A stretch of 64,000 nucleotides of DNA, from IMG/VR virus record IMGVR_UViG_3300028364_000013; one strand, 5' to 3'. Positions 1,181 through 12,075 of the stretch are shown here, one piece after another. Both the position numbers and the translations under genes were made by a program. Below the pieces are notes generated by a model. It searched no databases and had not been told where the DNA came from. It was given only the letters and a program-made list of their open reading frames with translations. Position 1 is the stretch's first letter. Each line of letters begins with the position of its first letter. The DNA comes from a virus (lineage: Duplodnaviria > Caudoviricetes).

Positions 1181-1896
1181 TTACTTTTCAGATTTCAATT
1201 TTATACCACAAGCTCTTTCAAACATTTCATATTGCTTAATAACATTTTTCCACATTTTATTTTTCATACCTTTTCCCCATTTAGTATTGAATTCAGCAGA
1301 ATCAAGAAACTTTCTTTGAGGTTTAACAAAATCTAAAAAATCAAGACCAATCTCACTCGATAAACCTGCGATATTTTGATGAATCCAATTATACTCAAAA
1401 ACTTGCATTAAGTCAGCATCTCTAATTATACCTTGCCTAATGTTTAAATCTTTACCATCAATTTCATAAGGATATTGTGTAGCATCAATTATTTCATTAA
1501 CTGAATCCAAGTCAACCTCAATATCTTCAGATTCAATAAATAATTTTATTATTTTTTTTGAATTTTTAATATTTACATCATCCGTCTTCTTACCTCCTGA
1601 GTGATTTACATCATGAAAAATGGCAGCTATTAATAACTCTCTTAATTCTTTTTCGCCAGAAACACCTTCCTCTATAGCTCCAATATAACAGTATTTCAAC
1701 ACTGTTAAAAGATGATTTAAGTTATGATAAGGTTTATCGTTAGAATTGCTATTGATGATAATATATTTAAAAGCTTTTTAAGATAATCATATTTATCTAT
1801 AATCTCAATTGCTTCTAATTTTGTGTCAACCTTTTTTTCTCCTTCATTTATAAAACCTCCTGTACCAGAAAAGTATCTGCATTCTTTGTTTTTCAT
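1181..1896 (-). pseudogene. HD-domain phosphohydrolase with a frameshift at an A5 run (about 1775)
   Basis: PYHNLNH, FHDVNH and IIRDAD motifs; N-terminal part MKNKECRYF...DYLKK is in another frame. Confidence 0.7.
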
Positions 1897-1944
1897 TCAT
1901 TTATAATATTATAAAAATAATGCATAAAAATCAAATATTTGGAC

Positions 1945-1981
1945 AAAAAAAAGGCTAAACAACTTTGAAGTTATTTAACCT
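1945..1981 (-). terminator. Intrinsic terminator after the large ncRNA
   Basis: AGGTTAAATAAC-TTCAAA-GTTGTTTAGCCT followed by a T run on the minus strand. Confidence 0.75.
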
Positions 1982-1984
1982 TTT

Positions 1985-2940
1985 TGGTTTTAAAAGCCTG
2001 AGTTTACAGCATTTATTAGCGTCCTTTAATGACCTTACCCACATCATCTTGCGGTTAATCAATGTATCCACGCACCCTTTCAGGTGGTATACGCCAGTCT
2101 CGATACCTATGGGGTATCATTCCTATCGTGCAATCTAACTCTGTATTTTCCACCTACACTATCTTGCCAGACATATGCGAGCTTTCGTTACAATCGACAC
2201 CCACCTTGCGAGGATGAATGACTCCCTGATTCTGCCGAAGCATCCAGGGTCTGAGAGACCTTTTAATATACACGCCCATGAGACTTTCACTTTTTTTCTG
2301 TTTATAGTAAAAACCAGCCATGCCAAGGCTAATATATACTGCATGAGATATACAGTACGAAGAGACGTGCCCACAGGAGTGGTTTCATAACTTTTTGGTT
2401 ACAAAATGCCACACGCCTCTCTGTTAGTCTATGCTGACCAACAATTAAACCCGAATTACTTTCTACGAATAGTTAAGTAACCAAATCCAAATGAGATGAA
2501 GCCCTTGCGTTTCTTACACGCTCGAACAACACAACTAAGCTTTTCCTTTTCATCAGCCGAAGCCAACTTTTTTTGCAAAATTTCTAATGCTCAACTACCA
2601 TTTTTAATCTCATGATAGTTTACCTTGTCCAGGTAAGTACTCACTTATTGCATAGGTGTCCAACAGAATAAATTCTGAAGGCGAGGGTGACACCCCCTTT
2701 TATAGCTTGTTACCAAACTTTATCTTCCCACAAGGGGCTTGCAATGATTTTCATCACCACGAGACTCTACACAGCCTCAAAATGATTGTTATTTGAATTG
2801 TAAAAGCTGGTTCATGTTACATAACCAATTTAAAAGCGAAGGACTCTGCTATATTTCATACAGTTGAATGTTTGTCCCATTCTCACTTTCCTCACTTACT
2901 CTTACTGTCGAATGGACCTAAACATTTAGACCAATAACAA
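1985..2940 (-). ncRNA. Large structured ncRNA of about 950 nt, GOLLD-like
   Basis: No credible ORF, GC higher than flanks, many short hairpins with GNRA/UUCG loops, own promoter and terminator. 3' part (AGTGTAGG...AGACTGGC...GTGGA...CTCAGGCTTTT) recalls GOLLD 3' domains from memory. Confidence 0.6.
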
Positions 2941-2958
2941 TTTTTTCAATATTTTTAA

Positions 2959-3025
2959 TTCAAAGAACGTTTCCTTTTGTCTTGCGACTCTGCAAAGCTA
3001 AACTATTTATTAACACAATGCAAGC
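2959..3025 (-). promoter_or_regulatory. Bacteroidota-type promoter (TAGCTTTG at 2993-3000) plus boxA-like GTTCTTTGAA (2959-2968) upstream of the ncRNA
   Basis: Matches the TAnnTTTG -7 consensus; TTG about 20 nt upstream. Confidence 0.6.
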
Positions 3026-3051
3026 TTTTTTTAAAAAAAATAAAAACTTTT

Positions 3052-3690
3052 TTATTTTCTACCTTTTTCCCAACCTTGTTGAGTATGGTTTTCCAACTCA
3101 TGTTTTTTTATTTTCTTGTTTTCTCCATCTCTGGTAATCCAACAAGTTCCATACTGAGAGTTCTTCCCCCCTTTTCCAAGACCCTTCTTTGATTCGCTCA
3201 TCAATTTCTTTGTCTCTTCTGTATGACTCTTTCCACTCCAATCGTATTGCTTTACCTTGCCTAATACATGTAGTTTTTTCATATTTTTAGAAGCTTTTTC
3301 ACTATGCCACTTAGCATACTCTTTATCTTCCTTTAATTTAATAGTATGTACTTTTCCTCCACGTTTACCACCTTTTGAAGAGGATTTAATATTTAAAAAT
3401 CCACCTTGACCTCCAACCATAAGATTCATACAATCTTTTTTTGCAATCTCATTTAGGTTGACAACCTCCTCCTCTCTCCTCTTCAACTCTTCTCTGGAAT
3501 CTAAAAACTCCAGTATTTCTCTCTCATGGTTTTCTTCACCATGCTTGTTTATGGAATATCTCAGTCTTTTTCCTGAACCCAAATAACCATCTTCTAAATT
3601 GTCTGTTGAGTGCATTCCAATGTAATACTTGCCACTCAGCAAGTTTGTCGTCTTGTAAATGAAGTGAAACTTCTTTTCTTTTCTTGGCAT
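3052..3690 (-). CDS. GIY-YIG homing endonuclease with NUMOD3-like tail
   Basis: IYKTTNLLSGKYYIGMHSTDNLEDGYLGSG; HTEETKKLMSES. Confidence 0.85.
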   Translation of the reverse strand: MPRKEKKFHFIYKTTNLLSGKYYIGMHSTDNLEDGYLGSGKRLRYSINKHGEENHEREILEFLDSREELKRREEEVVNLNEIAKKDCMNLMVGGQGGFLNIKSSSKGGKRGGKVHTIKLKEDKEYAKWHSEKASKNMKKLHVLGKVKQYDWSGKSHTEETKKLMSESKKGLGKGGKNSQYGTCWITRDGENKKIKKHELENHTQQGWEKGRK

Positions 3691-3742: not shown

Positions 3743-3813
3743 GAATCCATACGGGATTCGAACCCGTGCCTCCTGCCGAAAGGCAAGCGCTCTATCCGCT
3801 GAGCTAATGGACA
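3743..3813 (-). ncRNA. tRNA-like RNA whose anticodon loop is a 4-6 nt loop
   Basis: Normal D arm (GCTC..GAGC) and T arm (ACGGG-TTCGAAT-CCCGT); anticodon arm CTTGCC-TTTC-GGCAGG. Confidence 0.6.
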
Positions 3814-4426: not shown

Positions 4427-4865
4427 GATAATATCTTTTTTAGTTAGTATTAGACTTTTCCTAAAATATTATCGCTTCCTTATTTAAAGTTTGAAGAAAT
4501 ACGCTTCAGCAACAACTTGGTCTTCTGTTTGAGCGCAACGTTAATTACAAGCAAATCGTAATACACCTTGTTATTGCTGAATATTTTTAATTTTCAATAT
4601 GTCAATGAACTTTTAGAACCGTTGTTCTAAAAAAACAAAACGCTTTGAAAGATGTAACCTTAGTCCCTTCTGCCCTATTCTGGCGGGAGCCTGAGAATGT
4701 GTTCTTATGGTACAGTCCATCGGCCTTAGTCACTCTATCGTGAGCTTTTCTTAATCTCGTCACCGAGGTATTTCGTTTTGTTTTCTGTTTCTTTATACGG
4801 GCAAAGATATATAATGTTCTACTAATTACCAAAAGAATTTTAATCTTTTTTTAAACCACTATAAA

Positions 4866-10181: not shown

Positions 10182-10227
10182 GACTTTTGTTTTTAAAATT
10201 ATATTTTATTTCATTATCGAACAAATG

Positions 10228-10301
10228 AGCAGGTAGACGGGATTGAACCGTCTCTATTCCAGATTGGAAATCTGGCGCACCACCATTTATGCGTTACCTG
10301 C
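10228..10301 (-). tRNA. tRNA-Gly (TCC)
   Basis: GCAGGTA/TACCTGC-T; CCAGA-TTTCCAA-TCTGG. Confidence 0.9.
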
Positions 10302-10306
10302 GTTTG

Positions 10307-10461
10307 TGGACATGGGAGGAATTAAACCCAAGACGTAAATCTCGCTTACTTTGCTCCTGAAATGACTAATGCGCACTTATCAATTCACTCACGTTTCAAC
10401 CCTTAGCTTTCTTAGCACCAACACCAAAGTTGGGACGGTTCATCTCACCGCAAGCATATCC
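10307..10461 (-). ncRNA. 155-nt RNA closed by a tRNA-like acceptor stem
   Basis: 5' GGATATG pairs with 3' CATGTCC-A, preceded by a degenerate T arm; sits between tRNAs. Confidence 0.4.
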
Positions 10462-10496
10462 ATATTTGCCTATTTATAGTCGTAGCAAGGACTTTG

Positions 10497-10569
10497 AGCG
10501 AAATGTGGGAATCGAACCCCGTCTTCTCCTTGGAAGGGAGACGCTTTCAGCCATTAAGCTACATCTCGC
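10497..10569 (-). tRNA. tRNA-Gly (TCC), atypical acceptor/T stems
   Basis: TCTCC-CTTCCAA-GGAGA; T73. Confidence 0.8.
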
Positions 10570-10774
10570 ATATGGAGTCATTTATACACAGCTCCTGAGT
10601 GTTTATTTTACTTATTAAGATTTTTTAATTTATCTTTCTTATTGTCCTCTTGGGTAATTCTTAATCTTGCTGCGAAGTCCATTTGTGAAATTAGTTTTTT
10701 AATCCTATCAGGGTCTTCATTTTCTTTATTTTTCATAGTTTGGTTTTTAACAATATTATAGCCTTCAACTTTTG

Positions 10775-10858
10775 TGGGGGTGGTTGGATTCGAACCAACT
10801 CAGACCTATGCCAATGGTGTTACAGACCATCCCAACTCTCCAACTTTGGCGCACCCCC
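10775..10858 (-). tRNA. tRNA-Tyr (GTA)
   Basis: ATGGT-CTGTAAC-ACCAT, long variable arm. Confidence 0.9.
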
Positions 10859-10984
10859 AGTTTACGAAATTTCTTTTATTTTCAGTTTGCGGATTTCGTA
10901 ATCCCATTTCTGCTATTCTTAATTTGTCAGGGAACAAAGCACTGACAAACGTCTTGTCTGAATTGTAAAATTCATTTCCCTTAG

Positions 10985-11057
10985 TGGAGGTGGTCGAAAT
11001 CGAATCGACCTCAGGAACATTGCAAATGTTTCTCGCCAGCCTTGGACATGCACCCCC
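10985..11057 (-). tRNA. tRNA-Ala (TGC)
   Basis: Loop TTTGCAA; G3:U70 and A73. Confidence 0.85.
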
Positions 11058-11196
11058 ATTGCGCTATGGTGGAAAGTACTTTCCTATGGTTACCATAACT
11101 TATTTATCCGCTTTTTGTGGAGAAATAGGGAGTTTAACCCAGTTCAGTCGCTCCGCTAAGCTGTTACACAACATTAACTGAATACTTAAATCTCCA

Positions 11197-11700
11197 TTAT
11201 TTATTATTTTTCATAATTTCAAAGTACTTCTGATTCCTCAATCTTTTTTTCTTGTCGATTCTATTTCTAAAATCTTTAAGAAGAGGTTCTGGAATCTGGA
11301 TGCCCCTCTTTTGGAACTCTCCTAATATTTCTTCCTCTGTAAATGTCCAGTCGCAAATTCCATCGCTCCACTGGTCCACCCAAAGACCAAAACTTCTTTT
11401 TCCACTCATTACAGCTTTGACGATATTCGGATGTCTTGTCCTTATCACTGTATTCCTCTTGATGTCTCCGTTTTCAACTTGCCTAAAGCAATATTTACCT
11501 TCTTCACCATTTGGGTCAAACTCAGTTTCTATTATTGAGCCTGAGAATTCTAATAACCCACTTCTATAGCTCTTAAGAAAAAATATAAACATTTCATTGA
11601 AGTTATCAGAATATTTTCTAAGCTTCCTGTTTTTTCTACTTCCTACTTTCTTTTTTTGCTCATCAAGCCTACTTAACTTCTGGCTCCCAAGCGGTGTTCT
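11197..11700 (-). CDS. Hypothetical protein (true start uncertain)
   Basis: ORF-track start overlaps tRNA-Asp; body YSDNFNEMFIFFLKSY... looks natural. Confidence 0.6.
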   Translation of the reverse strand, partial: RTPLGSQKLSRLDEQKKKVGSRKNRKLRKYSDNFNEMFIFFLKSYRSGLLEFSGSIIETEFDPNGEEGKYCFRQVENGDIKRNTVIRTRHPNIVKAVMSGKRSFGLWVDQWSDGICDWTFTEEEILGEFQKRGIQIPEPLLKDFRNRIDKKKRLRNQKYFEIMKNNK

Positions 11701-11751
11701 CCTTGCTCTTTCATTTTTTCTAAATTTATAAATTAATTTAACATTACCCAG

Positions 11752-11824
11752 CGGTCCCGAACGGATTCGAACCGTCAACCATCTCGCAGACAACGAGCTA
11801 CACTACCAATTGTGCTACGGGACC
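11752..11824 (-). tRNA. tRNA-Asp (GTC)
   Basis: GGTCCCG/CGGGACC-G; loop TTGTCTG (unusual U37). Confidence 0.8.
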
Positions 11825-11830
11825 TTATTG

Positions 11831-11904
11831 TCTAAGTGACAGGGGTCGAACCTGCGGCCTGAGCGCCCCAAACGCCCCACTCTACCAAACTGAGCTACAC
11901 CTAG
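11831..11904 (-). tRNA. tRNA-Pro (TGG)
   Basis: C1-G72, loop TTTGGGG. Confidence 0.9.
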
Positions 11905-11912
11905 ATATTTTG

Positions 11913-11988
11913 CGGTCTATACGGTTTTCGAATCCGTCTGATATTCCTCCGTGACAGGGAGGTGGACACCCAAGCATCCCCATAGACC
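11913..11988 (-). tRNA. tRNA-Asp (GTC)
   Basis: CCTCC-CTGTCAC-GGAGG; G73. Confidence 0.85.
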
Positions 11989-11999
11989 ATTTTTTTAAG

Positions 12000-12075
12000 T
12001 CTGATGAGCTGGATTTGAACCAACGTGCTGCAATTTCCAAAATTGCCGAGATAAGCCTGACTCCTCTATCACCAG
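12000..12075 (-). tRNA. tRNA-Pro (TGG)
   Basis: GCAAT-TTTGGAA-ATTGC. Confidence 0.85.

Follow-up and report, generated by a model that had tools for sequence, protein, structure and literature searches.

GOLLD RNAs, among the largest bacterial and phage RNAs of unknown function, form a described family with solved structures (PMC12286853). The 833-nt env-38 GOLLD assembles into a protein-free 14-mer cage of D7 symmetry, as seen by cryo-electron microscopy (cryo-EM) (Kretsch et al. 2025, PMC12286853); a pseudoknot pair forms the intermolecular bridge between the cage subunits, and each of the two domains, 5′ and 3′, makes up a part of its own in this cage. The 3′ domain of Streptococcus agalactiae (Sag) GOLLD is mainly a decamer, and a review reports that in this RNA the copy number of the cage is altered where consensus hairpins have been lost (PMC12990946). 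Here we describe a locus at 1945–3025 of a 64,000-nt stretch of phage DNA (hereafter the window) taken from IMG/VR virus record IMGVR_UViG_3300028364_000013. A preliminary description, made from the sequence, had proposed a stand-alone, GOLLD-like noncoding RNA gene of about 950 nt with its own promoter, boxA-like site and terminator. Taken as a whole, the locus is best explained as a minus-strand phage gene that spans about 2989–1946 and encodes a GOLLD RNA of about 1,040 nt (probability roughly 0.88). Elements of the boxA kind are known from rRNA operon leaders, where boxB and boxA act with the Nus/rrn complex, from the nut sites of phage lambda, and from positions ahead of CRISPR arrays.

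Identification of a GOLLD RNA gene

Membership in the family was assessed by a search of the whole window against Rfam 15. The sole match other than tRNAs is GOLLD (RF02032), at 2421–1995 on the minus strand, which covers model positions 1–416 of 416 and scores 169.4 bits against a gathering score of 150 (E = 2e-47 in a local search). ROOL, OLE and every other Rfam family are without a match at E ≤ 1 over 1700–3300 on both strands, by which membership in ROOL or OLE is ruled out. The preliminary description had reached its GOLLD label from 3′ motifs only and had named the GOLLD, ROOL and OLE models as a check; the result of that check agrees with the label. This RNA is thus an additional member of an already described family and no new kind of element.

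RF02032 models only the conserved 3′ half of GOLLD, and the 5′ half is therefore expected upstream on the minus strand, towards position 3000. The element TAGCTTTG, as placed in the preliminary description, coincides with this region. Many GOLLD RNAs exceed 800 nt and have a separate, less conserved 5′ domain; here, the total length is about 1,040 nt, with a 5′ domain of about 570 nt. As had been noted from the letters, the region has no credible open reading frame (ORF), the longest on either strand of 1945–3025 being 71 aa, and it is richer in GC (0.39–0.43 over 1951–2850) than both flanks (0.25–0.32). Members of the family are found in phages or prophages, often next to tRNA genes. The locus lies in a phage genome: the IMG/VR virus record is 117 kb long, and about 20 tRNA genes are on the same strand of the window, of which two are less than 1 kb upstream of the RNA. 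Of the words sampled from the stretch, 100% are present in lake-water metagenomes.

Homologs and transcript boundaries

Homologs were collected with a 21-nt word from the 5′ part of the RNA (CAACTGTATGAAATATAGCAG), which as a query returned 7 IMG/VR loci and 16 metagenome loci. Six loci (L145, L137, L138, L141, L146 and L142) align to the window over the whole length of about 1,090–1,290 nt at 70–78% identity, and L139 aligns up to its own contig end at 86.5% identity (L142 is identical to L136, and L139 to L131). Rfam GOLLD scores are 190 bits for L146, 160 for L145 and L137, and 141 for L141 among the full-length homologs; more distant carriers of the 21-mer score 312 (L143), 80 (L135) and 75 bits (L130). 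The 21-mer has no match among 185,579 prokaryote species genomes, and no prophage host was obtained by this route. A loose two-block pattern built on the Rfam consensus was also tried; it returned 116 IMG/VR loci, with GOLLD present in just 5 of 49 screened records, and its matches are mostly due to chance.

In the alignment, homology begins about 35 nt before TAGCTTTG and stops at the U-run at 1945, and outside these limits the sequences diverge or enter other genes. At the upstream limit lies a promoter with a −33 element, TTG (3023–3021, minus strand), preceded by an A/T-rich tract, and a −7 element of the TAnnTTTG type, TAGCTTTG (3000–2993, minus strand). Both boxes are invariant in 8 homologs (TA...TTG in the case of the −7 element), and TAnnnTTG follows TTG by exactly 20 nt in every case, with ungapped conservation. 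The arrangement TTG-N-TAnnTTTG is the established promoter form of Bacteroidota. Across the window, TTTG-N17-22-TAnnTTTG occurs 18 times against 5.06 expected, a number reached by 0 of 100 shuffles, and 15 of the 18 matches are on the gene-bearing minus strand. A scan with the sigma-70 consensus detected neither a promoter ahead of the RNA nor the AU-rich terminator, both of which came out only in direct tests or tests specific to Bacteroidota. As deduced from the promoter position, the transcript probably starts at about 2991–2986.

The downstream limit is formed by an intrinsic terminator (1985–1945, minus strand), which consists of a perfect 17-bp hairpin (1985–1948) and a U-run to 1945. 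The hairpin folds with −17.5 kcal/mol (z = −3.79), which none of 200 shuffles equals, and hairpin and U-run are kept in 6 homologs with changes on both pairing sides (RNAalifold columns 1128–1165). Because the limits of homology and the positions of promoter and terminator are conserved, the primary transcript is predicted to extend from about 2989 to about 1946.

The unit of promoter, hairpin/boxA, RNA and terminator is kept in seven other uncultured phage or metagenome loci. With promoter, boxA and terminator keeping their positions in 7–8 homologs, the earlier account of a stand-alone gene with a promoter and an intrinsic terminator of its own holds; its length of about 950 nt does not, and is replaced by the promoter-to-terminator distance of about 1,040 nt.

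Expression in relatives

Metatranscriptomes contain RNA contigs from close relatives that stop at the borders of GOLLD. RNA contigs about 88–95% identical to the window were found in three marine or seawater metatranscriptomes from three studies, and they are confined to about 1988–2894 of the window. Over its full length, an 886-nt contig aligns to 1997–2886, and another of 854 nt spans 2771–1979 with two internal variable segments replaced. At their outer ends, the contigs have no more than about 10 nt of unlike sequence. The flanks are covered by a DNA run of a lake relative and by no RNA contig, the latter being taken as absence of data only. This is the pattern that a discrete, abundant RNA would give, unlike DNA contamination from a phage genome.

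RNA structure

RNA structure was assessed mainly by comparison of homologs. For the seven full-length sequences, RNAalifold yields 306 consensus pairs, 104 of which are changed on both sides in at least one sequence. The preliminary description had called the region rich in hairpins and had named covariation as a check; the hairpins are upheld by these compensatory changes, and only weakly by the folding of single sequences.

The canonical 3′ domain (2421–1995, minus strand, with a variable linker at about 2355–2295) is recovered by RNAalifold as a multi-hairpin structure, many pairs of which are changed on both sides (7 homologs, columns 666–1115). In the pseudoknot strand pair of the Rfam model (the kissing complement), 8 of 10 pairs form in the window, and pairs 830/974 and 832/973 covary among homologs. 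The hairpin at model positions ~249–268 is absent, and the lengths of the homologs at those columns suggest that it is missing from the whole subfamily. Within the variable linker, at 2333–2313 on the minus strand, lies a terminator-like hairpin with a U-run, which is kept in most homologs; it is a possible reason for needing antitermination.

The 5′ domain covaries inside the subfamily. It opens with a separable module, described below, and its remainder (2768–2422, minus strand) is lineage-specific, with several helices that show compensatory changes in 7 homologs. Profiles of this remainder and of the 3′ domain (nhmmer) found nothing in other lineages, and the module is the sole part shared beyond the subfamily.

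A boxA-like element in the leader

Between the promoter and the 5′ domain, the leader contains a small hairpin, GUC-GCAA-GAC with a GNRA loop (2988–2979, minus strand), in boxB-like position before a boxA-like element (2968–2945, minus strand). In most homologs the hairpin is GUC-GAAA-GAC/U; it is absent in L146 and different in L142. Judged by eye, hairpins also precede boxA in many Bacteroidota rRNA leaders. The boxA-like element, a putative antitermination site recognized from homologs and rRNA leaders, consists of GTTCTTTGAA, a 4-nt insert and AAATATTGAA. GTTCTTTGAA is exact at 2968–2959 on the minus strand, and its GTTCTTT (2968–2962) is invariant in all homologs. In all homologs, some 25 nt separate the start of the element from the −7 box, and its distance of 20–45 nt from the promoter is like that in rRNA leaders.

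To allow comparison with rRNA operons, 120 Bacteroidota 16S loci were fetched and 86 leaders of at least 300 nt were extracted. Of the 86 leaders, 55 contain GTTC[ATC]TT[GA]A, in most cases 80–210 nt before the 16S start, as against 0 on the opposite strand and 1.15 leaders in shuffles. The extended consensus of the rRNA-leader element is AAGTTCTTTGAAAATATTGAA, with GTTCATTAACATATTGAA as a common variant, and the likeness of the GOLLD leader reaches past GTTCTTTGAA(..) into ATATTGAA and includes the variant GTTCTTTAACATATTGAA. A weight matrix made from 47 unique rRNA boxA sites was run, ungapped, over the GOLLD loci. The leader site has the best score of its locus in L142 (26.7), L145 and L137 (25.1), L139 (21.1), and L141 and L146 (19.8), and the second best in L138 (19.8). 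Among 1.96 million background positions of unrelated viral loci, none reaches 19.8 and 8 reach 14.5.

The boxA-like site of the preliminary description thus corresponds to an element widespread in Bacteroidota rRNA leaders. We conclude that the GOLLD leader carries a copy of the rRNA-leader boxA of the host phylum, and we infer that it acts as an antitermination site. A literature search found no paper that connects GOLLD with boxA or antitermination.

Two further boxA-like sites were seen. One, at 11231–11206 on the minus strand (score 20.1, AGAAGTACTTTGAAATTATGAAAAAT), lies within the tRNA cluster region of the window (10227–12075). The other is TGTTGGTTGAGAACTCAATAGTG in Mycobacterium phage Bongo (L269, NC_041970.1), at about 291–313 between tRNA-Trp and tmRNA, and is followed by tmRNA, tRNA-Asn and the GOLLD 3′ half in that order; it is a candidate counterpart of the boxA in mycobacterial rRNA leaders.

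A separable 5′ module

At the start of the 5′ domain, 170 nt (2938–2769, minus strand) form a pseudoknotted module that contains the invariant 21-mer and is nearly invariant within the subfamily. Across 15 sequences, its structure comprises 42 pairs in 7 helices, one of which is a pseudoknot helix, and 93.5% of cells are paired, compared with 79% in shuffles and 35–54% in slid controls. The covariation score is 0.446 versus 0.163 in shuffles, and 0 of 500 shuffles reach 0.446. The module matches nothing in Rfam. A covariance model finds one copy in this phage; each of the three phage records that carry the module (G000, G003 and G005) contains a single copy. GOLLDs that begin with the module differ widely in their 3′ scores (L143, 312 bits; L135, 80; L130, 75), and other GOLLDs are without it (L126–L129 and G046).

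Three lineages carry the module without a detectable GOLLD 3′ domain. One is the FpV4 group of cultured Flavobacterium psychrophilum phages, with the module at 2990–3159 in L002 (KT876724.1, about 82,700–82,900 of the record, the tmRNA described next being at lower record coordinates, on the minus strand) and also in L004, L007–L009 and L144; the Fpv3 module scores 132 bits with the module's own covariance model. In this group, the module falls within an unannotated gap, and a tmRNA (RF00023, 58.2 bits; 3526–3940 in L002) that is likewise missing from the GenBank annotation follows at a distance of about 370 nt, counted from the module end, or about 420 nt, counted from the BLAST match; no GOLLD 3′ domain is found in FpV4 by Rfam at E ≤ 10. 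The other two lineages are metagenomic and have the module inside tRNA arrays. In L134, the module (2491–2660) comes directly after a tRNA and is followed by about 590 ORF-free nt and then the next tRNA. In L132, it lies between tRNA-Leu and tRNA-Thr (2172–2003, minus strand). Neither L132 nor L134 has a GOLLD 3′ domain by Rfam at E ≤ 5. The module motif was not found in the supplements of PMC12286853, in which the GOLLD alignment covers 3′ halves only, and a literature search found FpV4 and tmRNA together in no paper.

These distributions lead us to propose, tentatively and at somewhat less than even odds, that the module is an autonomous, exchangeable RNA domain, which would place GOLLD with its boxA leader in a phage stable-RNA programme together with tRNA and tmRNA. 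The separate 5′ and 3′ parts of the cage in the published structure fit such modularity (PMC12286853).

Two observations were made beside copies of the module. In L143, a tRNA-Thr gene (1737–1827, plus strand) lies inside the canonical GOLLD, directly after the module and about 660 nt before the 3′ domain. In L134, the tRNA ahead of the solo module is itself closely preceded by a sub-threshold match to the RAGATH-1 hammerhead ribozyme (2291–2368, plus strand; 48.9 bits, cut-off 56.3; E = 5e-6).

Genomic context

Upstream of the GOLLD promoter lie a probable GIY-YIG/NUMOD3 homing endonuclease gene (3690–3052, minus strand) and then two tRNA genes (3813–3741 and 3997–3898, minus strand; Rfam tRNA scores of 51.3 and 46.6 bits; ARAGORN). 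The endonuclease assignment comes from weak Pfam matches that are all below cut-off (NUMOD3, E = 8e-4; SegE_GIY-YIG, 4e-3; GIY-YIG, 7e-3). In relatives, no endonuclease gene separates GOLLD from the tRNA ahead of it, whose distance from the GOLLD start is about 80 nt (L145, L137 and L141) or about 240 nt (L146); the gene therefore looks like an insertion, recent by appearance.

The more distant of the two tRNA genes is about 100 nt long and probably has an intron. The same is probable for a second over-long tRNA gene, of 148 nt, at 34295–34148 (minus strand). A tRNA gene at 34758–34686 (minus strand) has a CTA anticodon and would read amber codons, and the anticodons of relatives' tRNAs include TTA in L134 and CTA in L135. 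For one further tRNA, at 3813–3741 (minus strand), the anticodon could not be read by ARAGORN. Still further upstream, a full match to the Bacteroidota promoter form (4833–4802, minus strand) is followed by a leader of about 190 nt and then by the best boxA of the window (4614–4589, minus strand; score 25.6). After this promoter and boxA come a 71-aa ORF (4426–4211), the two tRNAs, the endonuclease gene and GOLLD.

Discussion

The organization of the locus suggests how the RNA may be made. Host RNA polymerase would start at the Bacteroidota-type promoter, and the rRNA-type boxA of the nascent leader would recruit NusB/NusE and the remaining rRNA antitermination complex. The long, untranslated, structured transcript, including its internal terminator-like hairpin, could then be made processively and escape Rho, until the intrinsic terminator ends transcription. 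By homology to the solved GOLLD structures, the RNA is predicted to fold into a 5′ 'cap' and a 3′ 'ring' domain and to self-assemble without protein into a closed dihedral cage of 10–14 copies. That this cage belongs to a phage translation-support island (tRNAs here, tmRNA in relatives) and holds or shields RNA or ribosome-related cargo during lytic growth is our leading suggestion for its function, although one that we regard as less likely than not.

Several results weigh against this picture or narrow it. The RNA contigs stem from marine relatives about 90% identical to the window and cannot define ends or strand, and all of them stop short of the boxA leader (5′ limits at 2771, 2886 and 2894), so that the mature RNA may be shorter than the primary transcript or assembly may have been limiting. 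Leader removal occurs in rRNA; contigs without the leader fit a removal of this kind and may also reflect an assembly limit. One consensus hairpin of the 3′ domain is missing and, since hairpin loss alters the copy number in S. agalactiae GOLLD (PMC12990946), no stoichiometry is predicted here. Folded singly, the sequences have energies that do not stand out (z = −2.48 for the 5′ domain and −1.17 for the 3′ domain), and the structural evidence is comparative rather than energetic. On the ungapped rRNA matrix the window's own boxA scores just 14.5, because the 4-nt insert separates the perfect core GTTCTTTGAA from AAATATTGAA. No convincing consensus boxA came up when the sequence ahead of GOLLD was searched, crudely, in phiCbK, Vibrio PG07 and Roseobacter DSS3P8, and the leader is therefore not universal in the family. 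Finally, Nus binding, antitermination and oligomerization are predicted here from sequence and by analogy.

The boxA-like element might instead be a structural part of the RNA, pairing with the A-rich run just upstream, or a processing signal, and not an antitermination site. RNAalifold does pair AAAGAA with UUCUUU in 6 of 7 homologs, the exact GTTCTTTGAA is not enriched in the window (22 occurrences against 14.6 expected, with one mismatch allowed), and the binding of Nus factors is a prediction. However, the run able to pair with boxA is changed in L142, where 2 of 6 pairs are broken and GTTCTTT is unchanged, and this favours a sequence-specific role over a helix. The extension of the rRNA-leader likeness to ATATTGAA and the variant GTTCTTTAACATATTGAA, and a distance from the promoter that matches rRNA leaders, also speak against a purely structural part or processing signal, which we consider unlikely. 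A different question is whether a longer stable-RNA operon is transcribed from the 4833–4802 promoter through the boxA at 4614–4589, the small ORF, the two tRNAs and the endonuclease gene, with GOLLD as its final cistron, cut out by processing. The promoter match there is full, the boxA has the top score of the window, all of the genes are on the same strand, no convincing terminator is seen between 3052 and 3000, and the RNA contigs of relatives begin downstream of the leader, as processing would give. Yet the promoter and boxA of GOLLD itself are kept in every homolog, even where just a tRNA lies upstream, and the endonuclease gene in the proposed path is an apparent recent insertion. An operon of this kind is possible and, on balance, somewhat improbable; it is also compatible with a stand-alone gene.

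That the stretch is a decayed, non-functional GOLLD relic or another element altogether, such as a protein-coding gene or an intron, is highly improbable. The margin of 169 bits over the cut-off of 150 is moderate and a consensus hairpin is lost, as might be seen in a relic. Against this, seven loci keep the whole unit at 70–86% identity and show compensatory changes, relatives are present in metatranscriptomes, and a coding or intron origin is opposed by the lack of any ORF above 71 aa and of any other Rfam match. The Rfam result, the RNA contigs of relatives and the covariation together largely refute a relic or other element, and a GOLLD gene with its own promoter and terminator is the reading that we retain.

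This locus is unusually clean, with one promoter, a boxA leader, a terminator, seven covarying homologs and RNA contigs of relatives, and it gives exact construct boundaries for structural work on GOLLD RNAs of the Bacteroidota type. Its boxA leader suggests that phages borrow the rRNA transcription machinery of the host to obtain a full-length, 1-kb, untranslated structured RNA. For experiments, cultured FpV4 phages give access to the separable 5′ module. If the module folds or assembles alone, the GOLLD 'cap' and 'ring' would be separable parts, and with the FpV4 phages the role of the cap part could be studied for the first time in a cultured, genetically tractable system.

Comparison with known systems

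The RNA described here resembles env-38 GOLLD in having two domains, a conserved 3′ half and a variable 5′ half, in its phage origin and adjoining tRNA genes, and in a 3′ domain that the family model matches from end to end, complementary strands of the kissing/pseudoknot bridge included. It differs in being about 200 nt longer and in missing the hairpin at ~249–268. No sequence similarity is detectable between its 5′ domain and the env-38 one, as judged from the absence of the 21-mer in the env-38 construct, which was read by eye in the paper's supplement. Like S. agalactiae GOLLD, which is without some consensus hairpins, it is missing one, which may or may not be the same helix (P21b); the S. 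agalactiae RNA differs in its 5′ domain and in its origin from a Firmicutes prophage.

ROOL and OLE are likewise large, ornate, self-assembling RNAs, and ROOL also occurs in phages near tRNAs, but the RNA of this locus matches neither model at E ≤ 1. With rRNA leaders, finally, the GOLLD leader shares a promoter-proximal hairpin followed by the boxA sequence of the host phylum, both placed ahead of a long untranslated RNA. It departs from them in its cargo, which would be a phage cage-forming RNA, and in that the role of the site is predicted from sequence and position.

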